Of a stretch of DNA of 64,000 bases, positions 8,152 through 61,367 are shown in pieces; within the stretch, counting starts at the first letter, position 1; each line of letters starts with the position of its first letter. The notes under the pieces are model-generated. The model did no database searches and was not told the DNA's origin. It saw nothing but the letters and a program-made list of their open reading frames with translations. A program made the position numbers and the translations under genes. The DNA is from a candidate division WOR-3 bacterium (GTDB lineage Bacteria > Hydrothermota > Tepidihabitantia > Tepidihabitantales > DTDR01): the NCBI GenBank assembly GCA_039801885.1, contig JBDRVN010000002.1, positions 2,057-66,056 on the forward strand, in the 5' to 3' direction.

Positions 8152-8694
8152 ATGGTTCCCAAGAGAGTTTTTTTTACTAAGGGTGTTGGTAAACATCGTG
8201 ACCGCCTTTCGTCTTTTGAGGCGGCTTTGCGCGATGCGAGCATTGCCCAGTTTAATATTGTCCAAGTATCAAGTATTTTACCACCAGCTTGTAGAATTAT
8301 TTCTAAGCATCAAGGATTAAGATATGTTGTCCCTGGAGAAATTATTTTTTGTGTAATGAGTAGTAATGCCACTAATGAGCCTCATCGGTTAATTGCTGCT
8401 TCGGTAGGTGTGGCAATCCCACGGGATAAAAATCAGTATGGTTATCTTTCGGAATATCATTCTTTTGGTGAATCAGAAGTAAAGGCAGGAGAATATGCCG
8501 AAGATTTGGCAGCCCAAATGTTGGCAACTACCTTGGGAGTAGAATTTGATCCAAATACCAGTTATGATGAAAGGAAAGAGATTTGGAAGATTTCTGGGAA
8601 AATATATCGGACAATGAATATTACCCAAACAGCAATTGGTGATAAAAATGGGCTTTGGACAACGGTTGTTGCTTGTGCAGTTTTGATACCATGA
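8152..8694 (+). CDS. pdaD: Pyruvoyl-dependent arginine decarboxylase (PdaD family)
   Basis: 180 aa. It has the N-terminal FFTKGVGKH signature and an internal Ser-Ser (VSSILPP) at the expected self-cleavage site. GC content is noticeably higher than in the flanking genes. Confidence 0.8.
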
Positions 8695-14825: not shown

Positions 14826-15702
14826 AATTTCTTTAGGAATAGATATCGGTGGTACAAATCTTAAAATCGGCTTAGTAAAAAATAATAAAATTATAAAGAA
14901 AGGAATTTTTAAAACTGAAAAAAATTTTGATAATCAAAGATTTGGTGATTATTTAATTAAAATTATGGAGAAGTTTATAAAAGGTTATAAAATAGATAAA
15001 ATTGGTATCGGTATTGCTGGTTATGTTTTTTATGAAAAAGGGATATTAAAATTTTCGCCCAATTTACCGAGATTAAAAAATTTTCCTTTAAAAAAGATTA
15101 TTGAAAAATATTTTCAAGTTGAAACTTCTGTTTTAAATGATGCCGATGCAATGGTAATTGGTGAATATTTTTATCATAATAAAAGATATAAAAACTTGAT
15201 AACAATAACTTTAGGAACCGGTGTGGGTAGTGGAATTATTTTAAATAATAAATTACTTTTTAATAGTGAGTTTGGTCATACGATATTAATTCCTAATGGT
15301 TATTTATGTTCTTGTGGCAAAAAGGGTTGCGTGGAAAGCTATTTAGGAAGTTATGGAATGTTAAGGATAGCAAAAGATTTTTATAAAAAAGAAACAAAAG
15401 ATTTAACACCCCAAAAAATTTATGAGATGGCAAAGAAAAAAGATAAAAAAGCGTTAAAAACAATTGAGAGATATTCTTATTATTTGGCGATTGCTTTAAG
15501 TAATTTAACAAACTTATTTAATCCGGAAATAATTATATTAAATGGCGGAATAAGTAATATGGGAAGTTTATTGTTAAAATTTATAAAACCAATATTAAAA
15601 GAAAATATTTTTTATTTACCAAAAATAAAAATTTCCAATTTAAAAGATATTGCGGGAATTATTGGTGCGGTTAATTTTTTAAGGTTTGGCGGAGGTGGGT
15701 AG
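14803..15702 (+). CDS. ROK-family sugar kinase (glucokinase-like)
   Basis: It has the LGIDIGGTNLKIG ATP-binding motif and the ROK zinc motif CSCGKKGCVESY. The last about 16 nt overlap tRNA-Sec on the opposite strand. Confidence 0.8.
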   Translation: MKRKDQYKISLGIDIGGTNLKIGLVKNNKIIKKGIFKTEKNFDNQRFGDYLIKIMEKFIKGYKIDKIGIGIAGYVFYEKGILKFSPNLPRLKNFPLKKIIEKYFQVETSVLNDADAMVIGEYFYHNKRYKNLITITLGTGVGSGIILNNKLLFNSEFGHTILIPNGYLCSCGKKGCVESYLGSYGMLRIAKDFYKKETKDLTPQKIYEMAKKKDKKALKTIERYSYYLAIALSNLTNLFNPEIIILNGGISNMGSLLLKFIKPILKENIFYLPKIKISNLKDIAGIIGAVNFLRFGGGG

Positions 15703-15781
15703 GAATCGAACCTACCACAAGCCTTTTGGGCTTGCGAGCGGGTTTGAAGCCCGTCAGGCACACCAGCACCCATCCACCTCC
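15687..15781 (-). tRNA. selC: tRNA-Sec (selC), anticodon UCA
   Basis: The minus-strand read is 95 nt. The 8-bp acceptor GGAGGTGG pairs with CCACCTCC. The anticodon loop is CTTCAAA, which is UCA. The long variable arm has a 6-bp stem, caagcc with ggcttg. The T-arm is GGTTCGATTCC. The discriminator is G and a CCA is encoded. The architecture matches E. coli selC. Confidence 0.8.
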
Positions 15782-15863: not shown

Positions 15864-16577
15864 ATGCCAAAAACTTTAATTATTTTCCCTACTTATAACG
15901 AAGCAGAAAACATTAAAGATATTATTAATACGGTATTAGATATTTCTTCCGATATCGATGTTTTGGTAATAGATGATAATTCACCGGATAAAACTTATGA
16001 AATAGTAGAGAGTATGGCAAAAGAAAACAAAAGAATAAATTTAATAAAAAGAGAAAAAAAATTGGGTTTAGGTACAGCTTATGTCCTTGGGTTTAAATAT
16101 GCGATTGAGAAAGGTTATGATTATTGTTTTGAAATGGACGCCGATTTTTCCCATAGTCCTCACGATATTCCGAGATTTTTAGCATTGATGAATGAATATG
16201 ATTTAGTTATTGGTTCCCGTTATATTTCCGGAATTTCGGTGGTTAATTGGCCATTAAAAAGATTATTATTAAGTTATTTTGCTAATATTTATGCCCAAGT
16301 TTTTACCGGCTGTCCCATAAAAGATTTAACCAGTGGTTTTAAATGTTATAAGGTCTCAGCATTAAAGAAGATTAATTTGGATAAGTTAAAGATGGATGGT
16401 TATGCTTTTCAAATTGAAATCCATTGGCATTTTTGGAGAAATAATTTTAAGATAAAAGAAATTCCGATTATCTTTGTGGAAAGACGTTCGGGTGAAAGTA
16501 AAATGTCAAAAAGAATTATTTGGCAGGCCTTTATCTTCGTTTTGAAACTCTTCTTCCGACGCCTTCTCAATCTTTAA
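15864..16577 (+). CDS. GT2-family polyprenyl-phosphate glycosyltransferase (dolichyl-phosphate mannose synthase-like)
   Basis: 237 aa with Dpm1/ArnC-like motifs: FPTYNE, VIDDNSPD, DADFSH. Confidence 0.8.
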   Translation: MPKTLIIFPTYNEAENIKDIINTVLDISSDIDVLVIDDNSPDKTYEIVESMAKENKRINLIKREKKLGLGTAYVLGFKYAIEKGYDYCFEMDADFSHSPHDIPRFLALMNEYDLVIGSRYISGISVVNWPLKRLLLSYFANIYAQVFTGCPIKDLTSGFKCYKVSALKKINLDKLKMDGYAFQIEIHWHFWRNNFKIKEIPIIFVERRSGESKMSKRIIWQAFIFVLKLFFRRLLNL

Positions 16578-17990
16578 AATTTCGTATCGCTCGTTGTTAA
16601 ATTCAACAATTTCACCAACTTTTTTATTGAGAAATTTTTCACCAAAGGGAGCGCAATAAGAAATAATATGCTCTTTTCCTTTTAAATCAAGAAAACGGAT
16701 ATCAAAGGGACCTACTAAAAAATAGTCAAATTCCTTATTAGTTTTTAATTCTTTTATCTTGATTTTTGTTCCCGGCTCAACAAATTCACCGGTAATTTTG
16801 GAAAAATCAATTGGTTGAGAAACTTTTAATTCTTCGGTTAACTGTTTTAGCCAACTCAAAAGTCTTTGGCGTTCTTCCTTGGCAATCTTATACTCATAAT
16901 TTTCACTTAAATCACCATGACTTCTTGCTCTTTGTAAATCTTCGGCATTCTTCTTTAATTTTTCATTCAAAATTCTTAACTCTTCTTTTGCCTTTTCAAT
17001 TCCCTGTTTAGTATGGTAAATAACCTTCCTCTCTTTTTTCTTAAAAAAACTTTTTAAGGCTTCTTTTTCGTGGGGTTTGAAGAGGGATAAAGAAAGTATT
17101 CGTTCTTTAATATTGGTTAATTCTTCTTCATCAATATTTCCTTCTTCCAAAATTTTAAACATCATCTTTTTTAAAAAGGCAAAGTACTCTTTTTTTTCTT
17201 TTAAGGAAAGCAGGTCAGCAATTCTCAATAAGATTTGATAGGTTTTAAATTTATCTTTTAAAAGGTTAAGTTTATTTTTTAAAAGATAAACAAATTCATC
17301 GATTTTTTCTAAGTAAGAATAAAAGATTTCTTCAATTTCTTCATCAGCTACTTCAATTTTATTTTTAATTTTCTTTTCAATCTTTTGAGTTGGTTGTTTT
17401 TTAAACTCCTTTTCTTTAGGTAATTTATTTGTTAATGAAAAATTGTTGAAAACAAAATTTATTGGATACTTTACAATTTTATCTTCGTTAATTTTTTTAA
17501 GTTCTATTTGGTCAAAGAGAAAATCATAAGAAATTATTTGGTAAGGAAAATTTTGATAATAAACTATTTTACCACAAGTAAAATTGTATAAAAAATTTTC
17601 TAATCTATTTAAGGCTTTTAAGAAATTATTTATATCGGTATAAAAAATCTCAGATTTTTCTAAAAACTTTTTTTCCTCTTCAGTTTGATAAACTGATTTC
17701 AAAAAGTTAATAATCTCCTTTTTTAACTCTTCCCTTGGTTGTAATTCAAATATTCTTTTTAAAACTTTTAATAAATCTTCTTTTTTATTAAGAAAATAAA
17801 AATGATCCTTGGCTAATTTTAAGAAAGTTAATTTTAAATCAATTTTTGATTTGGGTAGAGAGTCAGTTATCGTTAAAATAAGTTCACCAGAAACATCTTT
17901 CTCCTCACTAAAAATATTTAGCAAAAGATTTTCCAACTCAGAAAAATTCTTTTGTTTTATTAAATTTTTGATTTCTTCAAGAATTTTCAT
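16506..17990 (-). CDS. GreA/GreB-family transcription elongation factor with long N-terminal extension
   Basis: The C-terminal roughly 150 aa carry the Gre coiled-coil and FKBP-like domains (DLSENYEYKIAKEE...VGPFD...YCAPFGEKFLNKKVGE). The N-terminal roughly 330 aa are K/E/L-rich and not recognised. Confidence 0.65.
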   Translation of the reverse strand: MKILEEIKNLIKQKNFSELENLLLNIFSEEKDVSGELILTITDSLPKSKIDLKLTFLKLAKDHFYFLNKKEDLLKVLKRIFELQPREELKKEIINFLKSVYQTEEEKKFLEKSEIFYTDINNFLKALNRLENFLYNFTCGKIVYYQNFPYQIISYDFLFDQIELKKINEDKIVKYPINFVFNNFSLTNKLPKEKEFKKQPTQKIEKKIKNKIEVADEEIEEIFYSYLEKIDEFVYLLKNKLNLLKDKFKTYQILLRIADLLSLKEKKEYFAFLKKMMFKILEEGNIDEEELTNIKERILSLSLFKPHEKEALKSFFKKKERKVIYHTKQGIEKAKEELRILNEKLKKNAEDLQRARSHGDLSENYEYKIAKEERQRLLSWLKQLTEELKVSQPIDFSKITGEFVEPGTKIKIKELKTNKEFDYFLVGPFDIRFLDLKGKEHIISYCAPFGEKFLNKKVGEIVEFNNERYEILKIEKASEEEFQNEDKGLPNNSF

Positions 17991-18181: not shown

Positions 18182-20830
18182 TTAGTAGAGGATTATCTTT
18201 TTTACTTTTTTACCTTCTTCGATAAGGAAATAGACCCCTCTTTTAATTTTCCTTTCTGCTTTGCTACCGGTGGCATTATAAATAGAGATATTTTTTTGTT
18301 TTAGTTCTTTTAAAGAGAGGGTATTCAAAGAGGTAATACCTTTTTTCTCTTCGCCTTTCTTTATAGAATAAAGTTCTTGAGGTGGAATATAAAGCCAGAG
18401 TTCTAAGGTTTTATTCCCTTTTAAGGCATAAATCCAGCCGTTTACATAAGATAAGGCACCACCATCTTTTACTTTTTTATTGAAAGGTTCGGTGGGAATT
18501 TGGTCTAAAGGTAGCCATTCGTTATTTTCAATATTGTAGATATAAAATTCATTAGTATTATTTCCTTTCAAGGCATAAATATATTTTTCATTATCCGTTG
18601 TTAAAGAAGCACCGGGTCCGACTGTCTTTTTCTTTTGAGCGCTTGGCGTAAAGAAGAGAGGCATTGGTTCTTTTACTTCCCAAGAATCGAGAGCAGGATT
18701 ATAAACATAAAATTCATTACTCTTTCCTTTCAAGAAATAGAGGTATCGGTTTTGGAAATTAATTAAGGCACTTCCTTTTACTGCTCCTTTATTAAGAGTT
18801 CCTTTAGGAATACTCTTTAAGAAAACAAAGGTATCCTTTTCAATATCGTAACAAAGGAACTTATCAGAACCGCCGCCAATAGTAAAGTAGAGTAATTTCC
18901 CATTTTCATTTTCTAAATAAGCAATAGAAGCACCTTCCTTTATTTTGGCAACAGGAATATCTTTTAGTTTTTCCCAAATTTTGGTTTCTAAATTATAGAA
19001 ATAAAATTCATTAGTTTTATTTCCTTTTAAGAGATAGATTTTATTATTACCACTTGTTAAAGCACCACCTTTTACGCCTTTGTTTTTCTCTCCCTTTGGA
19101 ATATCTGCTTCTTGGTACCATTTATCTAAACGAGGGTTATATCGATAAAACTCAATACTATTATTTCCTTTAGTCGCATAGATATAATTATTGATAAATG
19201 TTAAAGCACCTCCGGAACCAATTCGGTATGGACTATATTCTAAGATAGGCATATCTCTTCTTAATACCCAACCGGAAAATCCAGGTGGTGGAACATAGGG
19301 TTTTTTACCGCCGAAAGTACCAACTAAAGTATCATTAGCAGGATTTTGGTCATAAATGTTATTAAGATAGGTTAAGACATTAAAATCACCTTCTTCAATT
19401 CTAAACATTGGGAAAAAGATAGTCCTTTCTTCACCTTCACCTAAGGCATAGACCATTTTATCCTGAAAATAGATTAATTCATCTTTGCTGTTTTTGATAA
19501 GGAAAGTAATTTTGAATGTTTCGGTATGATAACTATAATTCTTTACTTTTACTTGAGGTGAAATAAGAATATCGGTTTCATACTCGCCAATTGGTTGTAA
19601 GATTTCAACCAAACCAACATCACGGAAACTTAATGAGAAATCGTTATCAGAATAGAAATAATCAAACTTTTCATTGTTACTTAAATCCATATCATTTTCC
19701 AATATTGCCTTCATCACAATCTTATATTCATTTTCGCCTACATTAAAGGGAACAAAGGAAATCTCTCTTTCACTAAATCTTTCCATTGTTATTGATAGGG
19801 TATCACCATAAACAATTTGGTCATCTAAATAGATTTCACAAATTGCAAGAAATTCTTCGTCACAATTGCCACAGTTTTCAAAAAGTCCTACTGGAATAAC
19901 TTCTCCTTGTGGTACATAACCAACCGGATAGATAATTTCTTTTATTCCAACATCGTGATATTCACCTTCGTAGACTAAAACATTTTTTGTTAACTCATCA
20001 TTATAAGGGTTTTTATCTAAAGAAAATAAAGTTTTGGCAATAGCAACATATTCACCAGTCGAAGCATTCCAAGGATTAGATGCTTGAATAGTTAAAGTTT
20101 CTTCCGGTGCCAAATAGAGGTTATCAATTATTGTATAATAAACTAATTGGTTATTATTATTTTTAATGCTAATTTCTAAACTAAAATTGTTAGCCGCTTC
20201 CGTGCCGAAATTCTTAATGGTTACTTTTGGATAAATTAAAGAAGGAACTTCTATCTTTCTTGGTCTAAGAATATTGATTACACCAACATCATAAGGAGTT
20301 AATCTAATACCGGAAACATCATCAATATAACAGGAGTTAACACCAAAAAGTCCAACATTTCTAAAAGCAATAAAGATGGGAATTGAGTCAAATTGGGTTA
20401 AAGGGATTACTCTTAAAGAATATTCTTTGCCCTTAAAACCAAAGGCATCAACTCGGGTATAGAAATTCTCCGGTTTATTACCAGTAATTGATACCCAGAC
20501 TTCTAAAGATTCTCGGAAATTTTTATTATGTGCCCGATAATAGAATTTTAATGTATCGTTACCCGGAACTGGGAAAAGTTGTTTTGTTACAAGCCAATCA
20601 TCATTTCTTATATTCTTCTTTTCAAATCTGCTTCGGGCACAAGCCGGTGGTGAATAGTTTTTTGCCGGTGAGCGTCGCCAACAGACAATACCATTATCCA
20701 TATTGTATATCTGCCACCCCTCCGGCGGAAATTTTTTGTCAGAAAAGCTTTCATTAAGAATATTAGAAAAGACGAAAGAGAATATAATAATACTTAAAAC
20801 TAATACATTTTTATTTTTAAGATAAAACAT
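18182..20830 (-). CDS. Large secreted beta-propeller (Kelch-like repeat) protein with T9SS-type C-terminal sorting-like domain
   Basis: It has an N-terminal signal peptide. There are about six repeats of G(G)AL....IY.LKGN.T.EFY.YN in the 500-780 region. The C-terminus is ISIYNATGSK...GVYFLIEEGKKVKKIILY. The likely start is the ATG at 20830, after SD ggaggtg. The ORF-track GTG at 20836 is 2 codons upstream. Confidence 0.6.
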   Translation of the reverse strand: MFYLKNKNVLVLSIIIFSFVFSNILNESFSDKKFPPEGWQIYNMDNGIVCWRRSPAKNYSPPACARSRFEKKNIRNDDWLVTKQLFPVPGNDTLKFYYRAHNKNFRESLEVWVSITGNKPENFYTRVDAFGFKGKEYSLRVIPLTQFDSIPIFIAFRNVGLFGVNSCYIDDVSGIRLTPYDVGVINILRPRKIEVPSLIYPKVTIKNFGTEAANNFSLEISIKNNNNQLVYYTIIDNLYLAPEETLTIQASNPWNASTGEYVAIAKTLFSLDKNPYNDELTKNVLVYEGEYHDVGIKEIIYPVGYVPQGEVIPVGLFENCGNCDEEFLAICEIYLDDQIVYGDTLSITMERFSEREISFVPFNVGENEYKIVMKAILENDMDLSNNEKFDYFYSDNDFSLSFRDVGLVEILQPIGEYETDILISPQVKVKNYSYHTETFKITFLIKNSKDELIYFQDKMVYALGEGEERTIFFPMFRIEEGDFNVLTYLNNIYDQNPANDTLVGTFGGKKPYVPPPGFSGWVLRRDMPILEYSPYRIGSGGALTFINNYIYATKGNNSIEFYRYNPRLDKWYQEADIPKGEKNKGVKGGALTSGNNKIYLLKGNKTNEFYFYNLETKIWEKLKDIPVAKIKEGASIAYLENENGKLLYFTIGGGSDKFLCYDIEKDTFVFLKSIPKGTLNKGAVKGSALINFQNRYLYFLKGKSNEFYVYNPALDSWEVKEPMPLFFTPSAQKKKTVGPGASLTTDNEKYIYALKGNNTNEFYIYNIENNEWLPLDQIPTEPFNKKVKDGGALSYVNGWIYALKGNKTLELWLYIPPQELYSIKKGEEKKGITSLNTLSLKELKQKNISIYNATGSKAERKIKRGVYFLIEEGKKVKKIILY

Positions 20831-21019
20831 ACACACCTCCTGCTAAGTTTATTTCAATTATAAAAATACATTTTTAATGCCATAATTTAGAGAAATATTT
20901 TTAATAAGTTTATAGTTTTTAATGGCTTAAAAATATTACAAAATTAAAATTTAATTATGATGCGACATATATTTAATTAAATTGTAACTTTTTAAAATTG
21001 AAGGACTTTTTATATGCGA

Positions 21020-31877: not shown

Positions 31878-33749
31878 ATGGTTATTGGTACTGCTGGACA
31901 TATCGATCATGGTAAATCTGCTTTAGTAAAAGCCCTTACCGGTTACGACCCCGACCGATTGAAAGAGGAGAAAGAAAGAGGAATGACTACTGATTTGGGT
32001 TTTGCTTTTTATGGTGATAAAGCTACAATAATTGATGTTCCTGGTCACGAAAAATTCATTCGCCATATGGTTGCTGGTGCTTACACAATAGATTTAATAA
32101 TCTTGGTAATTGCTGCTGATGAAGGGATAAAACCGCAGACAATTGAACACCTTAATATTGCTAAATTATTAGGAATTGATGAAGGTATTGTTGTTTTAAC
32201 TAAAAAAGATTTGGTTGATGAAGAAACAATAAAGAATTTAACAAGAGAGATTAGAGAATTTTTAAATGGGGAGGATTATCTAAAAACTGCTCCTATTGTT
32301 TCTTTTTCGGCGATTACTAAAGAAGGATTAGAAGATTTAAAAAGATTGATTGATGAAAAAATTGAAAAAGTTAAATTACGAAAAAAAGAAAGAGGAATAT
32401 TTTTTATGCCGATCGACCGAATATTTACAATTAAAGGATTCGGAACAATTGTTGCTGGTACAATTCTTTCCGGCAAGGCAAAGGTGGGCGATAATTTAGA
32501 ACTTCTTCCTCACAAAATAATAGTAAAGATTCGCGGTATTGAAAGGCACAAAAAACAAGTTTCCGAAGCGAAAATTGGCGAACGGGCAGCATTAAATCTT
32601 TTAGGAATTGAAAAAGAGATAATTGAGAGGGGTAATGTTTTGGCAACCCCCAATATTTTTGAGCCGACATTAAGATTAATTGGTTATCTTAAAATTTTAA
32701 AAAACTCACCAATTTCTTTAAAGAAAAGAGGTGTAATGAAATTTCATATCGGCACAAAAGAGACAATGGCAAAAATTTATCTTTTAGAAAAAGAAGAGAT
32801 GAATCCAAAAGAAGAAGGATTAGCAATTTTTCATTTAGAAGAACCGGTAGTTTGTAGTCCTTATGATCCGTTTATTATAAGAAATTTTAGTTTAAATATT
32901 ACTGTTGGCGGTGGTTTTGTTTTGTTTCCGGAAATACCTTTTGAAAAAATTGATAAAAAATATATAGAAATTTTTAAAAAAATATCTTCAGAAAATGATA
33001 AAAATAAAATTTTTGGGTTTGTTCAATTGAAAAATTTTAACGGTATTGGAATAGAGACTTTGCAGTTATTCACTGGAATTAACCAAGAAAAAATATTAAT
33101 TATTCTTGAAGAGTTAATAAAAGAAAATAAAATAATTAAAATCAAAGAAAATTATTATTCTCAAGAAGAATATAACAATTTAAAAAATAAATTATTAAAA
33201 ATTTTAGAAGAATATCATACAAATTTTCCTTATAAGAAAGGGATTAAAGAAGAAGAATTAAAAAATCGGTTAAATTATCTAAATAAAGATTTATTTGAAA
33301 AAATTATAAATGATTTGATTAGAGAAAAGAAAATAAAAAAAGACAAAGTTTTTCTAAGTCTCTTTGATTATCAGATAAAATTAAATGAAAAAGAAGAAAG
33401 TTATTTAAAAATAATTGAAGAAGAATTTTTAAAAAGAATTTTTTCGCCGCCGGATTTTGAGGAGATAAAAAATCTGTTAAAGATTGAAGAAAGGGAGTTA
33501 AAAAAACTACTCACAATTTTGTTAGAAAATGAAATTCTTTTTAAAGCAGATGAAATTTATTTTCATTATAAAAGTATTGAAAAGGCTTCTCAATTATTAA
33601 AAAACAATTTTCTTAAAAAACCGATTACCGTAAGTGAATTCCGGCAACTTCTGAATACAACAAGAAAATATGCTTTGCCTTTACTTCATTATTTTGATAA
33701 TAAAGGAATTACCGAAAGAAAAGGGGAGTTTCGTTATTTAAAATTGTGA
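31878..33749 (+). CDS. selB: Selenocysteine-specific translation elongation factor SelB
   Basis: 623 aa. The N-terminus MVIGTAGHIDHGKSAL and the DVPGHEKF and TKKD GTPase motifs are present. The long C-terminal winged-helix extension is typical of SelB. It starts 4 nt after the rpoN stop. Confidence 0.85.
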   Translation: MVIGTAGHIDHGKSALVKALTGYDPDRLKEEKERGMTTDLGFAFYGDKATIIDVPGHEKFIRHMVAGAYTIDLIILVIAADEGIKPQTIEHLNIAKLLGIDEGIVVLTKKDLVDEETIKNLTREIREFLNGEDYLKTAPIVSFSAITKEGLEDLKRLIDEKIEKVKLRKKERGIFFMPIDRIFTIKGFGTIVAGTILSGKAKVGDNLELLPHKIIVKIRGIERHKKQVSEAKIGERAALNLLGIEKEIIERGNVLATPNIFEPTLRLIGYLKILKNSPISLKKRGVMKFHIGTKETMAKIYLLEKEEMNPKEEGLAIFHLEEPVVCSPYDPFIIRNFSLNITVGGGFVLFPEIPFEKIDKKYIEIFKKISSENDKNKIFGFVQLKNFNGIGIETLQLFTGINQEKILIILEELIKENKIIKIKENYYSQEEYNNLKNKLLKILEEYHTNFPYKKGIKEEELKNRLNYLNKDLFEKIINDLIREKKIKKDKVFLSLFDYQIKLNEKEESYLKIIEEEFLKRIFSPPDFEEIKNLLKIEERELKKLLTILLENEILFKADEIYFHYKSIEKASQLLKNNFLKKPITVSEFRQLLNTTRKYALPLLHYFDNKGITERKGEFRYLKL

Positions 33750-34543: not shown

Positions 34544-34621
34544 ATATATAAGATAAAATTGCTCTTTGAAAATTTGGGAAGTGTGCCTTGAATGAAAAAT
34601 AGTCCCTTATAATTTTTCGCA

Positions 34622-36183
<1,562 letters not shown>

Positions 36184-36335
36184 TTACGAGTTATCTTTCA
36201 TTCAAGGCACGCTTCTTTTTTTATTTTTTATAAATATTTTTTTCTTTTTATCTCAAAATTAAACCCCACCTTTTAAAAGTCTTTTAAAAAATTATTTTTA
36301 TAAATTGACTTCTTTGGAAATATCTTTTAAAATTA

Positions 36336-39288: not shown

Positions 39289-40891
39289 TCTCTTTTTCTT
39301 ACCAATTGAAAAAATAGTTTTTTACGGCAATAAGAGTTTTAAAAGTAAAAGACTATCGGAAATTCTACCTTATAAAATAAAAAATGAATACGAAAAAGAA
39401 ATAGTTATTGAAGGAGAAGAAAGATTAAAAAGATTTTATTATTCCAAGGGATTTATTTTTGCCCAAATTGAAACAAAAATTGATAGCACCAAAAAAGGAA
39501 TAATTGTTAAATATCTTATTCAAGAAGGAGAACGACCAAAGATTGGCGAGATAAATTTTTCAGGCGTTGAAAAAATAGAGATAATAAATTTATTTCCTTT
39601 TCCTAAATATTATGAGCCAGAGAAAATTGAAGAGTTAAAAATTAAATTATTAAAATACTTTAAGGAAAAGGGATATTATTATGCCACAGTTGATTATGAT
39701 ACTTTATTAAGGGATAAAGAGTTAATTCTTAATTTTAATATAAATAAAAAAGAAGTTTGTTATTTTAAAAATATTGAACTTAAAGGAATAAATAATATCC
39801 GACCAAAAACTATTTTTCGTCTCTTAGAAGTAAAAAAAGGAGATAGATTTTCCGAAAGAAAGATTGAGAAATCTTTAACCAATCTTTATCAGAGCAATCT
39901 TTTTAGTAAAATCTATTATCTTTTAATTCCGGATAGTATCTATCAAGAAAGTTTAAATTTGGTATTTTATTTCTCCACTCAAAAGACAAGAAGTCTTGGT
40001 TTAGGTTTTGGTTATGGTTTTCCACCTTCTCGGCTACTTTTTTCATTGGAGAGCGGTTATTTCAATTTTCTTAATCGGGGTCAGGAGTTAAAACTTATTC
40101 AAGAGTTTAGTCCAACAATAAATTTTAAAGAGAGTGAATTAAATCTCCGTTTATCTTATTTAGTTCCCTTTTTTGGTATGAGAAAGATAAATTTCTTTTT
40201 CTATCCCTTTTTAATCTACGAAAAAAAGGAAAAAGAGAAGAAGTTGGCAATTGGTGAAGAAATCGGCTTTTATTATGATTTAAGTAAAAATTGGCAGATA
40301 AGTATTTATAACCGAATGAAAAAAAGTTATTTCTTAGAAGAAGGTAAGATAACCAATTCTTTTATTATAAAAAATATCTTTGATACTCGCGATGATTATT
40401 TTTCACCCGAAAAAGGTATCTACTTCTCACCGGTAATAGAAATAGCCGGTGGTTTGTTAAAAGGTGACAATGATTTTGCTCGGCTTTATGGCGAATTTCG
40501 CAGTTTTTTAAAACTATTTTCTTTTGTTATCTTTGCTCAAAGAAGTTTTTTAGGGAAAATAATTCCTTACGGAAGAACTTACGAAGTTCCTCTTTATGAA
40601 AAATTTCTCTTTGGCGGTCGCTATTCTTTGCGCGGTTATTTGGATAAAGAGTTTTCTTTAGATGAGATTTTTTATCAAAATTTAGAACTACGTTTCAAAG
40701 TGACAAAAATCTTTGGTTTTCTCTTATTTTTTGATTGGGGAATAGTTGATAAGAATATCAAGAAAAGTTGCGGTTTAGGGATAAGAATTGCAACACCGAT
40801 CGGTCCTTTGCGGATAGATTACGGAAATAAAACTGAAGAAATTTTTAAAAGTTTTGGTAAAATCTATTTGGGTTTAGGTAATGTTTTTTAA
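39266..40891 (+). CDS. BamA/TamA-family outer-membrane protein (Omp85 superfamily)
   Basis: It has POTRA-like N-terminal segments and a C-terminal beta-barrel ending in an aromatic residue. The start is set at the internal ATG (MALIIILN), because the upstream part of the ORF overlaps topA. Confidence 0.65.
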   Translation: MALIIILNLFFLPIEKIVFYGNKSFKSKRLSEILPYKIKNEYEKEIVIEGEERLKRFYYSKGFIFAQIETKIDSTKKGIIVKYLIQEGERPKIGEINFSGVEKIEIINLFPFPKYYEPEKIEELKIKLLKYFKEKGYYYATVDYDTLLRDKELILNFNINKKEVCYFKNIELKGINNIRPKTIFRLLEVKKGDRFSERKIEKSLTNLYQSNLFSKIYYLLIPDSIYQESLNLVFYFSTQKTRSLGLGFGYGFPPSRLLFSLESGYFNFLNRGQELKLIQEFSPTINFKESELNLRLSYLVPFFGMRKINFFFYPFLIYEKKEKEKKLAIGEEIGFYYDLSKNWQISIYNRMKKSYFLEEGKITNSFIIKNIFDTRDDYFSPEKGIYFSPVIEIAGGLLKGDNDFARLYGEFRSFLKLFSFVIFAQRSFLGKIIPYGRTYEVPLYEKFLFGGRYSLRGYLDKEFSLDEIFYQNLELRFKVTKIFGFLLFFDWGIVDKNIKKSCGLGIRIATPIGPLRIDYGNKTEEIFKSFGKIYLGLGNVF

Positions 40892-43800
40892 AAAGGGTTA
40901 TTTTATTTTTATTTTAATAATTATCTTTCTTTTAATTATTTATTTTGCCCTTTTTTTTACTACTAAAAATTACCTATTACCTAAATTGCTAAAAGGAATT
41001 GGAATAAAAGAGATTAAAAAACTGGAATTGTCCCCCCTTTTTAATCAAATTTTACTTACGGAAGGTAAAGGCGATTTTTTAAATTTTCAAAAAGCCGAAA
41101 TGAAATTTTATCCCCTGGCGATTTTTCAAAGAAAAATTATTATTGAAAAATTTGTTTTAGAAAAATTAGCGATTAAAATTGGAGAAAAAAGAGAAGGAAT
41201 AAAAGAAGAGAAGGAAACCAAAAAAGAGATTACCTTTATTTTACCCTTATTTTTAAAAGAGATTGAAATAAGAGATATAATTTTTCAAGATTTTAATTTT
41301 AAAAGAGAGAAATTGGAATTAAGAAATTTGAAAATTAATCTTTTCGGAATTTTCAAGGATGGTAAAATAAATGGCAAAATAAAAGAAATCGCTGGCGAAG
41401 TTTTTTATGATAAATATAATTATCCTTTTTCTCTTTTAAAAACCGATTTAGAATTAAATAATGAAAAATTTTTACTTACTAATTTAAATTTAATAGTAAA
41501 AAATTCTTTTCTTTTTGGAGAGGTTAGTTATAATTGGAAAGATAGCGAGTGGCGGATAAAGATTGATAGCTCCTTTTTAAATCTCCAAGATTTCGCTTTT
41601 TACGAAGGAGAAGGGAAAATTAAAGGAAGTTTATTAATCAAAGATAGTAAATATAATGGTGAGATAGGTATTTTCTTTAAAAAGGTAAAAATTGTTAAAG
41701 AGATTGAAGATATTGAAGGAAAATTTAGTTTTTTAGACCAAATAGTTTCTTATCAATTAAGAGGGAAAATATTTGGCTCTTCTTTTAGAACCAAAGGAAA
41801 ATTTAATATCCAGGACTTTTCTTATGATTTGATTATGGAAATTTTTAATTTAAAAAATCTATTGCCCTTTGAACTAAAAAAAGGAAAATTAGAAATTAGT
41901 GGTAAGAAATTTATTTTAGTTAACTTCAAATTGGATTTAACTTTTCTTGATGAGAAGATTGATTTCTTAAAAGGTGAAGGAGTTTATCAAGATAGAAAGG
42001 TTTTTATCAAAAATCTGATCGGTGAAGGGAAAGGGGTTTCTTTTTCTTTGCAAGGAGAGTTAAGTAAAGAAAAAATATTAATCACCGCCGAGATAACCAA
42101 ATTACCCTTAACAATTGTTAATGTTTTCTTTTCCAAAGAACTTAAGGGAATAGTAAAAGGAAAGGGAGATTTTGTTTATGAGAAAAAAATTTTTTCAGTA
42201 AAGGGTGATTGGCGGATAACAGATTTTTCTTTTAAAGAGGCAAATCTATCCTTTAAAGATTTTAAATTTTTAGGTAATTTTTCTTTAAAAGAGAGAATAG
42301 ATTTAGAAGGAGAAATAAATTTAAAAGAACTAAAAACCGCTTATTTATCTTTTGATACCTTAAAAATCAATTCTTTCTTTAAAGATTTTCAGTTAATAGC
42401 ATTTCTTAATAGTTCCTTTTTGAAGATTAATGGTAATTTCCTTAGTAATCTCAAAGATAGTCTATTATTTTCTTTAACAGATGTTGAATTTGTTTTTAAT
42501 GGCAATCGTTTTCTGAATACAAAACCAGTAATTATTGAAATAAAAAAGAATAGTTTTAAGTTAGAAAATTTCAATCTAAAATATGGCGAAGGCGAATTGG
42601 TTTTTAATTTAGAAAAGGAAAAGGATATTTTAAAATTAGAAAGTGAGATTAAAGCCTTTGCTTTGGAGAATTTCTTTTTAATTAGCAAAAAGAAAAAGGA
42701 AATTTTTGGTAAAGTAAATAGTCAAATTCTTTTAACTTATGATTTGAAAAAGAAGTATTTAAACAATTTTCTTTTAAATACAAAAATTTTTGATTGCCAA
42801 TTTCAGAAATTATCCTTTGATTCTCTTATCGGCAATTTCTCTTTGGCAGGCGAAACAATTATTTTAAAAAACCTCTCTCTTTTTAAAGAAGATAAGGACT
42901 CAAAGATATATGGTTTCTTAATCTACGATTTTGAAAAAAAGGAATTGGTTAGTGAAGATCTAACAATTGAATTAGAAAATTTTCCCAGCGATATTATCTT
43001 TTTCATTCCCGATATCTTGATTGCCCAAGGAGGAAGGATTAATGGTAAAATAAGTTTAGGGGGAAATTTAAGAAACCCAAGAATGAGAGGAAGGGCAAGT
43101 TTAACTGGCGGTGAGATAATCTTGAAAATTCCTGAAGCCAAGATAAAAGATGTTTCGGCAACAATTATCTTTTCCGAAAGGGAGATTATTTTTCACCAAA
43201 TCTCAGGAAAAGTAAAAGAAGGCGAAGTTTTTGCTAATGGTTTTATTAGATTGGGTGAATTTTTCCAGATTGATACCTTACATAAAGATATTAAATTTAC
43301 TAATCTACCAATAACTTACGAGAAAGATTTCATTGGTGTTATTAGTGGTGATGCTTTTCTTTCTTTAAATAAAAATAATTATTTAAAGGTTGTTGGTAAT
43401 GCCGAAATTAAAGAGGCTTTAATTACCATTCCCTTTGGAGCAAAAAGGGAAGGAGAAATAAAAGAAGTGGATACTTTATTAGAATTGGACCTAACTTTCA
43501 AAGGAGAGCGAAATATCTGGTTAAGGAATAAAAATGCTGATGTCGAATTGGGTGTTGATTTTAATCTCAAATTAAAAAAGGGTAAATTTATTTATAGTGG
43601 TAAGATAAATACGAGGCAGGGATATCTTTATTATTTAGGAAGGAGTTTGGAATTAAAGGAAGGGGAGATTGTTTTTGAAAACATTGCCCATTTTGACCCA
43701 AGGGTTTATTTAGTTGGTTCTTTAACCACCAAGCCGATAACCTATCAAAATAGAAAAGAAAGATTTAAAATCTTTTTGGAAGTTAATGGTTATCTCTCTC

Positions 43801-44225
43801 TTCCCAACTTTAATCTATCTTCTGAGCCACCTTATTTAAGTCAGGAAGAGATAATCAGTTATTTAGGCTTATCTTTCACACCGGAAGAGTTAAAAAATTG
43901 GGAAGAGAAAGATCTCTTTTTAGATATCTTACAGGATAGAATATTATCCTATTTTGAAAAAGAGACTTCCGAAAGGTTAAGGAAGTATATTGGTCTTGAC
44001 TATTTCCGATTAGAGAGTAGTTTTCGGGGAGAGCCCTATTTAAGGCTTTCGGTTGGTAAATATCTTGGTGAGAAATTATATTTCAGTTATACCCATAGTT
44101 TCATTGAAGAGAAACAGGATGTCTTTCGGGCAGAATATTATCTAAATAAAAATAATCAGATAATTGGTGAGCGAAATGAGTTTGGCAAAACAGTAATAAA
44201 ATATCTCTTTTATTTCCGATTTTAA
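40881..44225 (+). CDS. TamB/AsmA-like translocation-and-assembly module protein
   Basis: 1114 aa. It has an N-terminal TM anchor, a long beta-rich repetitive body and a DUF490-like C-terminus. It is paired with the upstream Omp85-family gene. Confidence 0.6.
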   Translation: MFFKKGYFIFILIIIFLLIIYFALFFTTKNYLLPKLLKGIGIKEIKKLELSPLFNQILLTEGKGDFLNFQKAEMKFYPLAIFQRKIIIEKFVLEKLAIKIGEKREGIKEEKETKKEITFILPLFLKEIEIRDIIFQDFNFKREKLELRNLKINLFGIFKDGKINGKIKEIAGEVFYDKYNYPFSLLKTDLELNNEKFLLTNLNLIVKNSFLFGEVSYNWKDSEWRIKIDSSFLNLQDFAFYEGEGKIKGSLLIKDSKYNGEIGIFFKKVKIVKEIEDIEGKFSFLDQIVSYQLRGKIFGSSFRTKGKFNIQDFSYDLIMEIFNLKNLLPFELKKGKLEISGKKFILVNFKLDLTFLDEKIDFLKGEGVYQDRKVFIKNLIGEGKGVSFSLQGELSKEKILITAEITKLPLTIVNVFFSKELKGIVKGKGDFVYEKKIFSVKGDWRITDFSFKEANLSFKDFKFLGNFSLKERIDLEGEINLKELKTAYLSFDTLKINSFFKDFQLIAFLNSSFLKINGNFLSNLKDSLLFSLTDVEFVFNGNRFLNTKPVIIEIKKNSFKLENFNLKYGEGELVFNLEKEKDILKLESEIKAFALENFFLISKKKKEIFGKVNSQILLTYDLKKKYLNNFLLNTKIFDCQFQKLSFDSLIGNFSLAGETIILKNLSLFKEDKDSKIYGFLIYDFEKKELVSEDLTIELENFPSDIIFFIPDILIAQGGRINGKISLGGNLRNPRMRGRASLTGGEIILKIPEAKIKDVSATIIFSEREIIFHQISGKVKEGEVFANGFIRLGEFFQIDTLHKDIKFTNLPITYEKDFIGVISGDAFLSLNKNNYLKVVGNAEIKEALITIPFGAKREGEIKEVDTLLELDLTFKGERNIWLRNKNADVELGVDFNLKLKKGKFIYSGKINTRQGYLYYLGRSLELKEGEIVFENIAHFDPRVYLVGSLTTKPITYQNRKERFKIFLEVNGYLSLPNFNLSSEPPYLSQEEIISYLGLSFTPEELKNWEEKDLFLDILQDRILSYFEKETSERLRKYIGLDYFRLESSFRGEPYLRLSVGKYLGEKLYFSYTHSFIEEKQDVFRAEYYLNKNNQIIGERNEFGKTVIKYLFYFRF

Positions 44226-46046
44226 ATGGTTGGTAAAATAGCAATTTATGGGCTTTCCTTAAAGCCCTTGGATTATCTTTTGCCCGAAAGGTTTCTAAAA
44301 GAAGTTAGTTTAGGTTCTTTGGTAAAGGTTCCCTTAAAAGAAAAGGAATATTATGGTGTCCTTCTTGATTTTAAAGAAGAAAGCAAAGAGAAAGAATTGA
44401 AAGAGATTAAAGAAGTTATTATAAAAGATTTTCTACCAAAAAAGTTATTGCGATTAATAAAAACAACTGCTCGTTATTATTTTTTAGAGATTAGTGATTT
44501 ATTAAATTACATCTTACCAAAGAATTTAATTAAAAATTTGGTTAAGGAAAAAGAAGAATTTCCGATAACCGAAGAAGAAAAAGAAAATAAAAAGATAACT
44601 CCTTATTTCTTTTGGCAATATCCCGATTTTAAACTTTTCAAAAAGTTTTTTCCCTTTATTGAAAAACTAATTAAAAATAATAAAAGCATCTTACTAATCT
44701 TTCCCACCTTTGAGATTTTAAATAATTATTATCAATTCTTTTCGGAGAATTTTCCCAACAAAGATATCAATCTTTATCAATACCATTATCAAATCAAAAG
44801 AAAAGAAGAGATAAATATTTGGAAAGAGATAAGAAAAGGTAAGAGTTGTGTTCTATTTTCTATCAGGCAGGGAATATTTTTGCCCTTTTTAAATTTGGGT
44901 GCTATCTTTCTTTTCTTTGAAGATATTCCCATTTACAAAGAATGGGAAAGGAAAATCCATTTTGATGTTAGAAAGGTTTCGCTTTTTCGTGCTTATTTAG
45001 AAGATATCCCTTTATTTATCTTTACACCCACTCCCAGTTTAGAACTTTTCTATCAGACTCTCAAAAAAAAGATAAAAGTAATAAAAAAAGATAAAAATTT
45101 TTTAGAGAGAAAAAGGATAATAATTATAAAGAAAAGGGAAGATAAGATTTTGAGTGAAGAGTTAAGAAAATTTCTTTTTTATCAAAAAGAGAAGGAGAAT
45201 TCTTTTTTATTAATTCCCGAAAAGAGTTATAGTAAAATTGTCTATTGTGAAGATTGTGGCTATTTTCCCAAATGTCCAACTTGTGAGATTGCTCTTTCCT
45301 ATTTCAAAAATCCGCCACGTTTTGAATGTCCCTATTGTCGTTATCAAATAATCTTTGATACCTGTCCCAAATGTGAAAGTGAGAATTTCTATTATAAATA
45401 TTTTGGCAAAGAGAAACTTTTAGAAGAGTTAGCAAAAGAAGGCTTTATTAACAAAGAGAATATTAAGATTGGTGGTTTCTTTGATGCTCTCTCTTTAACT
45501 TCTTACTTAGATTTTTCGGCAATTTTAGATTACGAAAGACTTTTCTCTTATTTTGGCTATTTAAGTGAAGAAAGGGTTTTACAGATAATTATCTATCTTC
45601 TTTCTAAAACAAAAGAAGATGGTTTTCTTCTTATTCAGAAAAGGGATAAGAAAGAAGATGAGCTTATCAGAATTTTGAAAACAAAAAAGTTAGAAGGAGC
45701 TTACTTATCTATTCTGAGAAAAAGAAAACAACTGTTATATCCACCTTTTTCCAAATTATTATTAATAAAAGTGATTGGTGAAAAAGAGAAACTAATAAAA
45801 TCAGTCTATAAGATAAAAGAAAATATTGAAAAACTTTTAGAAGAGAAAGTAAAAGATTTTAATAAAATTAAGATTTTAGGTCCTTTAAAAAAAATAAAAA
45901 GGAAAAGGAAAAAAAGGGTATATCAATTTCTTTTAAAGATTCCTAAAAATATAAAAATCTATAACTTTTTAAGTTTAGAAGATTTTAAAAATTTAAGGGT
46001 TAAAAATTTAGAAATAGAAATTGACTTTGAGCCGATTGATATTTAA
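44226..46046 (+). CDS. priA: Primosomal protein N' (PriA) homolog with degenerate ATPase motifs
   Basis: The N-terminal 3'-DNA-binding-like region matches (LDYLLPE...GSLVKVPL). The PriA Cys-rich zinc module is CEDCGYFPKCPTCE...CPYCRY...CPKCES. Walker A is absent and DEEH is replaced by FFED. Confidence 0.6.
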   Translation: MVGKIAIYGLSLKPLDYLLPERFLKEVSLGSLVKVPLKEKEYYGVLLDFKEESKEKELKEIKEVIIKDFLPKKLLRLIKTTARYYFLEISDLLNYILPKNLIKNLVKEKEEFPITEEEKENKKITPYFFWQYPDFKLFKKFFPFIEKLIKNNKSILLIFPTFEILNNYYQFFSENFPNKDINLYQYHYQIKRKEEINIWKEIRKGKSCVLFSIRQGIFLPFLNLGAIFLFFEDIPIYKEWERKIHFDVRKVSLFRAYLEDIPLFIFTPTPSLELFYQTLKKKIKVIKKDKNFLERKRIIIIKKREDKILSEELRKFLFYQKEKENSFLLIPEKSYSKIVYCEDCGYFPKCPTCEIALSYFKNPPRFECPYCRYQIIFDTCPKCESENFYYKYFGKEKLLEELAKEGFINKENIKIGGFFDALSLTSYLDFSAILDYERLFSYFGYLSEERVLQIIIYLLSKTKEDGFLLIQKRDKKEDELIRILKTKKLEGAYLSILRKRKQLLYPPFSKLLLIKVIGEKEKLIKSVYKIKENIEKLLEEKVKDFNKIKILGPLKKIKRKRKKRVYQFLLKIPKNIKIYNFLSLEDFKNLRVKNLEIEIDFEPIDI

Positions 46047-46671: not shown

Positions 46672-46818
46672 AATAAAAATAATAACTAAAAAAAATATTT
46701 ATGTCAATAAGATAAAAACAAAATCCTATAATATCTCCTATACTGCCCCTTTTATAATAGAAAGTAAATCCCTCCTGTCTTATCAAAGTAGTGCTAAAAA
46801 GATATTTAAAAGGACTAA

Positions 46819-47136
46819 TTATTTACCTTTTAACAGAAGAAAATACAACTCCTTTAATACCTCCTTTTCCAATTTATTTCTTACCATTTCTTTCTTAATG
46901 AGATTTTCAACTTCTTGTAATCTTCTTTTCTTTATCAATTTGTATGCCCTTCTTAGAAAGTTAAGATAACCCAAATAAAAGGTTTCTTGAATAGGATAAT
47001 TCTTCAAAATTTCCTTCAACTTCTCTTCGTATTTTAAGAGCTCTTTCATTTGGTAATAATATTTATAAGTTGATTTTGGGTATTCACAACCGAAATTAAA
47101 ATAGTATTTACTCACCCTTTTCTTTAGTTTTCTCAT
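46819..47136 (-). CDS. Small uncharacterised protein, paralog family member C
   Basis: 105 aa. It reads MRK..+R.+KYY...EYP...FYLGYLNFLRRAYKL. It overlaps the upstream paralog B by 4 nt (ATGA). Confidence 0.5.
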   Translation of the reverse strand: MRKLKKRVSKYYFNFGCEYPKSTYKYYYQMKELLKYEEKLKEILKNYPIQETFYLGYLNFLRRAYKLIKKRRLQEVENLIKKEMVRNKLEKEVLKELYFLLLKGK

Positions 47137-47495
47137 AAGATAATACCAAACAAATCAATCCTTAATTTTTCCATAATCTCTTTATTCAAGCCCTTTGCTT
47201 CCCATTTACTTTCACTAATCGCAACAAGTTTATAAAGCATAATCCCCGAATATTTATTAGTAAGCCGCCAGATTTCCTTCGCATAAGAGAAATAAAATAC
47301 ATATTGGGTAGGTATTGTTTCCGGATGGGTGTCTAAGATAGTCTTTATCTTGGTATCCAGTGCCGCAAGTTCACCATATTTTTCAACAATATTCTCAATC
47401 ATCTGCTCTTTTAGACTTTCATATCTTTTCTTATTAATTTCTGGGTCTAATTTTGCGATATACTTATTAACTCTTTGATAAGCGTTTCTTACCAT
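47133..47495 (-). CDS. Small uncharacterised protein, paralog family member B
   Basis: 120 aa. The block RVNKYIAKLD...IPTQYVFYFSYAKEIWRLTNKY is clearly homologous to ORF 22259..22606. Confidence 0.5.
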   Translation of the reverse strand: MVRNAYQRVNKYIAKLDPEINKKRYESLKEQMIENIVEKYGELAALDTKIKTILDTHPETIPTQYVFYFSYAKEIWRLTNKYSGIMLYKLVAISESKWEAKGLNKEIMEKLRIDLFGIIL

Positions 47496-47650
47496 AATAT
47501 CCTCCTTTTTATTTATTTTCCCTTACATATATATAACGAAAAAGAAGGGCAAAAGGTTACCACTTTTTTTAATATTGACTTTTATCAATTTAATTTTATA
47601 ATTTATGATATTGAGGGAAAAATTTTTGCTCTTTGGCAATTGGGTTAAGA

Positions 47651-47769
47651 CTTTTTTGATTAAAAAGAAATTGCGACATTATTAGAATATATAGAGAAGG
47701 GAAAAAACCGCGATGTTTATTCTGAATAGTCAAAATCTATTCCCTGATTAAAAAGGGATTGCGACATAG
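47651..47769 (+). repeat. Direct repeats gattaaaaag(a/g)(a/g)attgcgacat (x2) upstream of the RHH gene; a third partial copy is downstream at about 48058-48090
   Basis: Read directly. The first copy is gattaaaaagaaattgcgacat at about 47651-47675. The second is gattaaaaagggattgcgacat at about 47745-47768. The downstream copy is agtcaaaacttttcccctaattaaaaagggat, about 26 of 32 identical to the second upstream copy. Confidence 0.6.
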
Positions 47770-47803
47770 AATTAACAGATTTGATTTTAAAATGGAGGTG
47801 AAA

Positions 47804-48016
47804 ATGGCAAGAAAGTTATTTAGTTTATATTTTGATGAGGATATTTATAATAAAATAGTTGAGTGGGCAGAAGGGATAGGGATTTCACGAGCGAGATTGA
47901 TTAATGTAGTTTTCAACTTCATATTCGGACGGGCAGGAATAAAAAATGTAATTAATGATAAAATATATGAATTATGTAAAAAGGCAATTGAAGAATATGA
48001 AAAAATACAGAAATAA
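47804..48016 (+). CDS. Ribbon-helix-helix (CopG/Arc-like) small DNA-binding protein
   Basis: The predicted pattern is a beta strand followed by two helices (KLFSLYFDEDIYNKIVEWAEGIGISRARLINVVFNFIF). The strong SD ggaggtg precedes the ATG at 47804. The ORF-track start at 47759 lacks an SD. Confidence 0.55.
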   Translation: MARKLFSLYFDEDIYNKIVEWAEGIGISRARLINVVFNFIFGRAGIKNVINDKIYELCKKAIEEYEKIQK

Positions 48017-48229
48017 GGAGAAATGATGCAGCAAGGTGTGGTTCTCCATCAGTCAAAACTTTTCCCCTAATTAAAAAGGGATCGGTGGTTTAAATCGAAA
48101 TTTGGAATGTGAAAAAAGAGAAAAATTATTAATTCTTATTTCCACATTTGCTAAACTTTTCCTGATAAAAAGGTTTAATTTTCTTGCTATTGATATTTTC
48201 TAAAAATTGATTATATTTTAATCTAAAGG

Positions 48230-48316
48230 AGAGGTGTCCGAGTGGACGAAGGAGCACGACTGGAAATCGTGTGCACACCCAAAAGGTGTGCCGTGGGTTC
48301 GAATCCCACCCTCTCC
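48230..48316 (+). tRNA. tRNA-Ser (anticodon GGA)
   Basis: The acceptor ggagagg pairs with cctctcc. The anticodon loop is ctGGAaa. The long variable arm is gcacacc caaaa ggtgtgc. The T-arm is gtggg ttcgaat cccac. Confidence 0.8.
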
Positions 48317-48335
48317 GTAAATTTTTATTTATTAA

Positions 48336-58098: not shown

Positions 58099-58115
58099 TA
58101 AAAGAAGCGGCGCCT

Positions 58116-61124
<3,009 letters not shown>

Positions 61125-61150: not shown

Positions 61151-61267
<117 letters not shown>

Positions 61268-61367
61268 AGTTTTTGTTTTTTAACCTTAATTAATTTAAAA
61301 TTAAGTAAAATTTTTAAAATTTATAAATCATTGAAAAATAAGAAATTAAATTAATAAAAAAATTTTT

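Follow-up and report, generated by a model that had tools for sequence, protein, structure and literature searches.

Does the priA gene of a candidate division WOR-3 bacterium still encode a helicase? The gene occupies 44226 to 46046 on the forward strand of a 64,000-nucleotide stretch of contig JBDRVN010000002.1 (assembly GCA_039801885.1), which is referred to here, at its full length, as the window, and a first-pass annotation made from the letters of the sequence had described its product as a PriA homolog that appears to be ATPase dead. The evidence points to a PriA pseudohelicase, that is, a protein descended from PriA and kept by selection that, to judge from its sequence, would quite probably be unable to bind or hydrolyze ATP. 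A PriA that has lost its ATPase while keeping its fork-binding and zinc modules, as the annotation had envisaged, is supported by profile alignment, by homologs, by selection, and by the predicted fold.

Domain content and helicase motifs of the window PriA

The open reading frame (ORF) at 44226 to 46046 has an ATG start, one stop codon, and no ambiguous bases and encodes 606 amino acids (aa). Its ATG directly adjoins the stop codon of tamB (1114 aa; 40881 to 44225, forward strand), the upstream neighbor that marks the orthologous locus. By the ORF list, Pfam, and PDB matches, the product is a PriA homolog: PF17764 (PriA_3primeBD) matches residues 13 to 98 (E = 2.2e-15; 56.7 bits against a cutoff of 22.7), and this match, together with the alignment to Escherichia coli PriA, places the 3'-end-binding domain (3'BD) at aa 1 to 100 (44226 to 44525, forward strand). 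At the other end, PF18074 (PriA_C) matches residues 507 to 603 (E = 1.4e-9; 39 bits against a cutoff of 26.9), corresponding to a PriA C-terminal domain at aa 507 to 606 (45744 to 46043, forward strand) that is preceded by the signature R500...YPPF (aa 505 to 508). The nearest PDB relatives by sequence are the E. coli and Klebsiella PriA proteins (E ~1e-28). Other models score lower. The Zn_ribbon_PriA model falls slightly below threshold (21.1 bits against a cutoff of 26), and none of the Pfam models DEAD, ResIII, and Helicase_C has an above-threshold match in the 606-aa protein. Among the NCBIfam models, the priA equivalog TIGR00595 reaches 190.3 bits, which is under its cutoff of 230.35, and all of the PRK05580 models score far under theirs.

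Motif loss was assessed in three ways, namely, through a MAFFT alignment of the window protein with seven canonical and nine degenerate homologs, a HMMER alignment to E. coli PriA, and a hidden Markov model (HMM) of 89 canonical PriAs. None of the SF2 motifs I (GxGKT), II (DEEH), V, and VI (QxxGRxGR) is matched in the window protein, and by these alignments the ATPase/helicase motifs I, II, IV, V, and VI are gone. Their replacements are mostly bulky hydrophobic or lysine-rich sequence.

At motif I (Walker A), the relic at aa 130 to 140 (44613 to 44645, forward strand) reads WQYPDFKLFKK against a canonical GVTGSGKTE(V/I)Y. The first-pass annotation had reported that Walker A was missing, which holds insofar as there is no GxGKT, but its register was about 20 residues off: the segment that it quoted, KLIKNNKSILLIFPTFEIL, is motif Ia, and the true site is 130 to 140. 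The HMMER alignment begins at E. coli Y234, one residue past the Walker A segment G227-S-G-K230-T-E-V233, and the canonical-PriA HMM cannot align the stretch that spans Walker A and the winged-helix domain (84 model positions against 30 residues). The motif Ia relic (44697 to 44720, forward strand) reads IFPTFEIL against LVPEISLT.

At motif II, E. coli DEEH (320 to 323) pairs with FFED (aa 230 to 233; 44913 to 44924, forward strand) in the HMMER alignment, the numbering of which was checked via K328/G332 (PMC5175346), and E232 (E. coli E322) alone is kept. The canonical-PriA HMM also pairs DEEH with FFED (230 to 233), and QvaGRagR with IYLLSK, at high posterior. Both alignments thus confirm the FFED that had been read in place of DEEH, and the quoted segment AIFLFFEDIPIYKEW is present. 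The motif III region (45021 to 45038, forward strand) reads FTPTPS against a canonical GSATPS, with P270, S271, and E273 invariant. The motif IV relic seen in the alignments (45216 to 45233, forward strand) is PEKSYS against NRRGY(S/A). Here, E-K replaces R427/R428, which in E. coli PriA form a pair of arginines that bind single-stranded DNA (ssDNA) (PMC13594977), and this loss suggests that ssDNA handling by the core changed too. The motif V relic (45468 to 45494, forward strand) is IGGFFDALS against LGTQMIAKG and follows a deletion of about 30 residues, and the motif VI relic (45594 to 45617, forward strand) is YLLSKTKE against QVAGRAGR, with both arginines lost. Overall, alignment to the PriA HMM, which the annotation had proposed as a check, confirmed the positions of motifs II and VI and revealed no intact Walker A or DExH.

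These replacements bear on whether the protein could be a cryptic enzyme that hydrolyzes nucleoside triphosphates or translocates through noncanonical residues or a second nucleotide site, which we consider very improbable. A second, weaker, never-located nucleotide site has been proposed for E. coli PriA (PMC5778457), and there are many lysines near the former P-loop (DFKLFKK). However, the window protein has none of the P-loop glycines, and the Walker B Asp-Glu pair, motif V, and the two arginines of motif VI are gone as well. The replacements are conserved within the clade, and in E. coli PriA the K230R change alone abolishes ATPase activity (PMC5778457).

The window PriA is also short, with 606 aa against about 730 for the typical protein, as the first-pass annotation had pointed out. 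This shortfall of ~125 residues is accounted for by two deletions, one of the winged-helix domain and one of ~30 residues in the part of lobe 2 that runs from the Cys-rich region to motif V. The winged-helix domain, which lies between the 3'BD and lobe 1, is deleted according to both the MAFFT alignment and the canonical-PriA HMM, and a short linker (aa 101 to 129; 44526 to 44612, forward strand), recognized from the alignment gap and from its low confidence (pLDDT) in the structural model described below, replaces its ~90 residues. The comparison set also includes canonical PriAs of 640 to 700 aa that are just as short, so that the winged-helix domain is perhaps not a universal feature of PriA.

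Several modules specific to PriA are kept. In E. coli, the 3'-OH pocket of the 3'BD is formed by D17, Y18, G37, and K61 (PMC5778457), and three of these four residues (D17, Y18, and K61) are matched in the window protein by D16, Y17, and K59. The Cys-rich region (45246 to 45374, forward strand) contains four CxxC pairs (C341, 344, 350, 353, 368, 371, 380, and 383), and these eight Cys, which would be enough for two Zn sites, are invariant in every homolog aligned, whether degenerate or canonical. The 3'BD-like N terminus and the Cys-rich zinc insert that had been recognized by eye are therefore borne out by the PF17764 match and by the presence of all eight Cys (C341...C383). An aromatic-rich loop, which in E. 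coli PriA (K328 to Y335) touches the fork junction (PMC5175346), is partly retained as YKEWERKIHF (E. coli Y327 to Y335; 44934 to 44963, forward strand): its length is kept and its character is kept in part, with K238 corresponding to E. coli K328 and F246 to Y335. The PriA signatures ER (449 to 450), R500, and YPPF (505 to 508) are conserved, and R500, P506, and P507 are invariant. Conservation is seen in the 3'-OH pocket residues, in the zinc ligands, in the C-terminal domain, and in part of the aromatic-rich loop, and these elements show the strongest constraint.

Conservation, selection, and predicted fold

Assemblies from JGI, ENA, NCBI, and Logan contain intact orthologs of 605 to 606 aa with 66 to 91% identity; among these assemblies are more than 10 metagenome-assembled genomes (MAGs) of candidate division WOR-3. 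At the orthologous loci, the gene order rluD-topA-omp85-tamB-priA is constant. The sequences that took the place of the motifs are themselves conserved: WQYPDF is found in all WOR-3 orthologs down to 66% identity, and the motif II replacement FLFFE[DE] is likewise conserved among orthologs. The close relatives all come from WOR-3 or unclassified MAGs. A genome scan with an eight-sequence alignment gave five loci, all of them WOR-3 or unclassified, and a profile search of a set of 5.8 billion proteins gave nearly the same 16 matches, with no added taxonomy. The orthologs in NCBI MAGs (P0017 to P0030 and P0003; 606 aa) are annotated as "hypothetical protein," so that such MAGs look as if they lacked priA in standard annotation, which amounts to an annotation gap.

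The ratio of nonsynonymous to synonymous substitution rates (dN/dS), obtained by the Nei-Gojobori method, is 0.134 between the window gene and that of locus L006 (dS 0.34, the least saturated pair) and 0.094 between loci L001 and L008, the second close pair. By region, the values are ~0.1 for the dead lobe 1, 0.04 to 0.12 for the 3'BD, and 0.02 to 0.12 for the Cys-rich region, the lowest of any region. With an overall range of 0.09 to 0.2, the dead helicase lobes included, the window PriA gene is maintained by selection.

These data leave little room for a pseudogene in decay or for an artifact of assembly or frameshift, an explanation that we regard as scarcely credible. The drastic loss of motifs would fit it, as would the splitting of the gene in one MAG into adjacent pieces of 342 and 306 aa (P0023 and P0026), although this split is probably itself a frameshift or assembly error. 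On the other side stand the dN/dS of 0.09 to 0.2, the conserved replacement sequences (WQYPDF and FLFFED), and a frame of 605 to 606 aa that is uninterrupted in more than 10 independent assemblies. The first-pass annotation had named a frameshift or assembly error as an outcome that would overturn its claim, and when the gene was examined for one, the frame was intact in those assemblies and its other reading frames held no credible Walker A or DExH. The sole match in an alternate frame, GKGKS, lies in a frame that holds 70 stops, and the only frameshift-prone sites in the gene are two A8 runs, both within the intact frame. The confident predicted fold also argues against decay. As far as sequence data can do so, selection and conservation refute this explanation.

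Two further WOR-3 MAGs carry PriAs that are 30 to 31% identical to that of the window and likewise without motifs. In both of these loci (L012 and L013), an ORF of ~970 to 985 aa stands immediately upstream of priA, and in L012 it is confirmed as TamB. The L012 genome has a GC content of 42%, and its motif-less PriA is 31% identical to the window protein. Motif-less PriAs at 30 to 31% identity, at the same tamB-priA locus and at 42% GC, point to a loss that is old within the lineage and not due to AT bias. Erosion of glycine-rich motifs driven by AT content was also considered and rejected on two grounds: Obg (GLPNAGKS) and SelB (GHIDHGKS) keep their P-loops in the window, and the relative at 42% GC is equally without motifs.

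The dead lobes are nonetheless predicted to fold. An AlphaFold2 model built from a 17-sequence alignment has a mean pLDDT of 86.4 and a pTM of 0.84, and disorder is limited to the linker that replaces the winged helix, with pLDDT <50 at residues 117 to 121. When the model was compared with the PDB by Foldseek, ranks 1 to 9 were PriA chains exclusively. The best match was fork-bound E. coli PriA (8fak_H; E = 3e-36, TM = 0.80), followed by E-value by 6dgd_B and then by 6dcr_A, a PriA with an engineered winged-helix deletion; Mfd, RecG, and DEAD-box proteins ranked far below the PriA chains. In the model and by Foldseek, the two RecA-like lobes, the 3'BD, and the C-terminal domain are predicted to pack as the PriA fold. 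Since the top ranks are all PriA, the dead RecA-like lobes are predicted still to fold and pack as in PriA and thus to form its scaffold.

The tight adjacency of tamB and priA is also seen at coordinate level in L012 (69 to 2987 and 2992 to 4815) and L013 (21 to 2978 and 2989 to 4845). The PriA and TamB proteins of these loci are ~30% identical to those of the window, and the adjacency could represent cotranscription or a frozen gene order. Synteny with L012 fails downstream of priA, where a 410-aa ORF is unrelated to the aspartokinase-like gene of the window. The region downstream of priA also contains a variable spot, which in the window (46700 to 48220) holds three small ORFs (105, 120, and 85 aa). 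Its counterpart in L004 (11278 to 15674) has two additional genes, one encoding 319 aa and one encoding a CHAT/caspase-like peptidase of 843 aa, and that in L001 (12424 to 12825) is almost empty.

Proposed role and breadth of motor-less PriAs

A helicase-dead PriA was previously established (2015) only in Deinococcus-Thermus. The PriAs of that group match the consensus of motifs I and II poorly and have arginine in place of the GKT lysine (Lopper, Boone & Morrow 2015, PMC4504706), and the PriA of Deinococcus radiodurans shows neither ATPase nor helicase activity but still binds its cognate DnaB as well as ssDNA and fork DNA (PMC4504706). Like that pseudohelicase, the WOR-3 protein derives from PriA and has a nonconsensus Walker A and Walker B, yet is retained (PMC4504706). 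It differs in that no remnant of its P-loop can be recognized and in that motifs II, IV, V, and VI have likewise been erased; it also has deletions of the winged-helix domain and within lobe 2 and belongs to another phylum. Neither the Walker A lysine nor the Walker B acidic pair is conserved in it, which goes beyond a K-to-R change (PMC4504706). The WOR-3 PriA is a new and far more extreme variant, in a different phylum.

With canonical PriA (E. coli and K. pneumoniae; 4NL4, 6DGD, and 8FAK; TIGR00595), the window protein shares the 3'BD, the two RecA-like lobes, the eight-Cys two-zinc insert of lobe 2, and the S10-like C-terminal domain; the order of these parts and their predicted packing are also the same. 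Unlike canonical PriA, it is without ATPase/helicase motifs and the winged-helix domain and is ~125 residues shorter. Laboratory versions of its two main changes exist in E. coli priA300 (K230R) and in the winged-helix-deleted PriA (6DCR). The priA300 protein is without ATPase, helicase, and translocase activity, yet its behavior is nearly wild type, with primosome assembly through the PriA-PriB route both in vivo and in vitro (PMC5778457). Each carries one engineered change, and the proteobacterial protein concerned has PriB and DnaT as partners. The WOR-3 protein is a natural case in which the two losses occur together, and its host presumably has neither PriB nor DnaT.

By analogy with priA300 and D. 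radiodurans PriA, the window PriA probably works only as a fork-recognizing scaffold. Forks or D-loops would be recognized through the 3'BD, and the Cys-rich region and the rigid dead helicase core would form a static platform that recruits DnaB, either directly or via a loader. The lagging-strand arm would not be unwound, so that the protein would act only on forks already exposing an ssDNA lagging template or would depend on another helicase to expose one. Indirect support for retained binding of ssDNA, forks, and DnaB comes from the conserved pocket residues of the 3'BD, the partly kept aromatic-rich loop, and the strong constraint on the Cys-rich region. The earlier suggestion of a pure loader or scaffold with a different restart route is plausible by the same analogy.

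Several points weigh against a pseudohelicase that acts as a scaffold. The loss of ATPase activity is deduced from sequence. The window protein has no equivalent of G37 of the E. coli 3'BD pocket, and the loss of this residue together with that of the motif IV arginines means that the core may also bind DNA differently. Within the 64-kb window there is no gene for DnaB, for a loader, or for SSB. Furthermore, PriB and DnaT, which make a helicase-dead PriA sufficient in E. coli, are to our knowledge not expected outside the proteobacteria.

A further point against it is that the search of this genome for a canonical priA covered the 64-kb window. This leaves some room for a neofunctionalized paralog, in which a canonical priA would be located elsewhere and the degenerate copy would serve as a DNA-structure sensor, as a regulator, or in a role linked to tamB. 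Even between WOR-3 lineages whose PriAs are ~30% identical, tamB stays next to priA, the stop codon of the one abutting the start codon of the other, and the score below the NCBIfam priA equivalog cutoff (190 against 230 bits) could also be read in this way. However, there is one PriA-like locus in the 64-kb window, and a tblastn search with canonical PriAs found no second such locus there. In searches with the window protein, none of the canonical PriAs among the word-sharing matches was linked to a WOR-3 assembly. Of these, only P0009 was traced; it is the one canonical match with an NCBI source and belongs to an unrelated assembly (GCA_947628535.1). In addition, the tightest constraint falls on modules specific to PriA (the 3'BD pocket and the Cys-rich region), and the case of D. 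radiodurans shows that a degenerate PriA can keep fork and DnaB binding (PMC4504706). A paralog with a new role is therefore, in our judgment, unlikely, and a PriA pseudohelicase is preferred.

If the degenerate PriAs are the sole PriAs of their genomes, then the universally conserved task of PriA would be to recognize forks by their structure and to recruit the helicase. Unwinding would be an optional accessory, and no natural "minimal PriA" seen so far would be as stripped down as the WOR-3 protein. As a natural minimal construct of 606 aa with neither winged helix nor ATPase, from what is apparently a thermophile, it may be useful for structures of DnaB recruitment without PriB or DnaT.

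How widespread such proteins are was approached through a HMMER search of 1.84 billion cluster representatives, which gave 9,899 homologs (E ≤ 1e-3). The alignment used for this purpose comprised 165 sequences (the top 150 plus earlier matches), all representatives of clusters at 50% identity. The Walker lysine is absent from 73 of the 165 by MAFFT columns and from 64 by the canonical-HMM alignment, and most of these (55 of the 73 and 49 of the 64, respectively) have lost both the Asp-Glu pair of Walker B and the arginines of motif VI as well. The degenerate PriAs have a median length of 622 aa versus 744 aa for canonical ones. Four or more CxxC motifs are kept in 62 of the 64 representatives that lack the Walker lysine, which is consistent with an intact zinc module. 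Where the position can be aligned, Arg replaces the Walker lysine in 16 representatives (including P0046, P0048, P0045, and P0050), which hints that Lys-to-Arg at Walker A, as in Deinococcus-Thermus, is a common first step in motor loss.

On a rough neighbor-joining tree, the degenerate sequences form clades of 39 (the window protein included), 16, and 7, together with 11 scattered sequences, with 11 parsimony changes in all. Because a degenerate query preferentially retrieves degenerate relatives and neighbor joining may group long branches, there is uncertainty about how large the degenerate fraction is overall and how many times the loss occurred independently. Even so, with at least 64 of the 165 nearest cluster representatives lacking the Walker lysine, helicase-dead PriAs appear to be commoner than the literature states. 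We suggest, tentatively, that motor loss may be recurrent and widespread in uncultivated lineages rather than an oddity of Deinococcus-Thermus. The first-pass annotation had called a helicase-dead PriA unusual; the phenomenon is real but less unique than that, given the Deinococcus-Thermus pseudohelicase and the 64 or more of 165 nearby representatives. A second, unrelated lineage with a selected-for, motor-erased PriA, along with dozens of further motif-less metagenome clusters, strengthens the view that the main task of PriA in replication restart is scaffolding and not unwinding.

Other features of the window

The rRNA genes of the window are unlinked. The 16S gene (34618 to 36184) lies ~22 kb upstream of the 23S (58114 to 61124) and 5S (61152 to 61268) genes, with ~15 protein-coding genes between them, tamB and priA included. 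The rRNA genes have a GC content of 46 to 50%, whereas that of the genome is ~28%, a contrast in keeping with a thermophile. Components of the selenocysteine machinery are also present, namely, a tRNA-Sec (15691 to 15781, reverse strand) and a SelB with winged-helix domains (31878 to 33749, forward strand).

A 494-aa protein resembling Gre factors (16506 to 17990, reverse strand) has its GreA/GreB domains confined to residues 324 to 475; its ~320 N-terminal residues have no Pfam match, and the protein is unusually long. An 884-aa protein (18182 to 20836, reverse strand) has Kelch/beta-propeller repeats in its C-terminal half. A tRNA match at 48228 to 48317 (forward strand) spans 90 nucleotides against a 71-position model and may contain a long variable arm or an insertion. 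Finally, a homolog of deoxyhypusine synthase (8655 to 9710, forward strand; PF01916, E = 5e-95) is encoded in this bacterial genome, within a block whose local GC content is 0.36 versus ~0.28.

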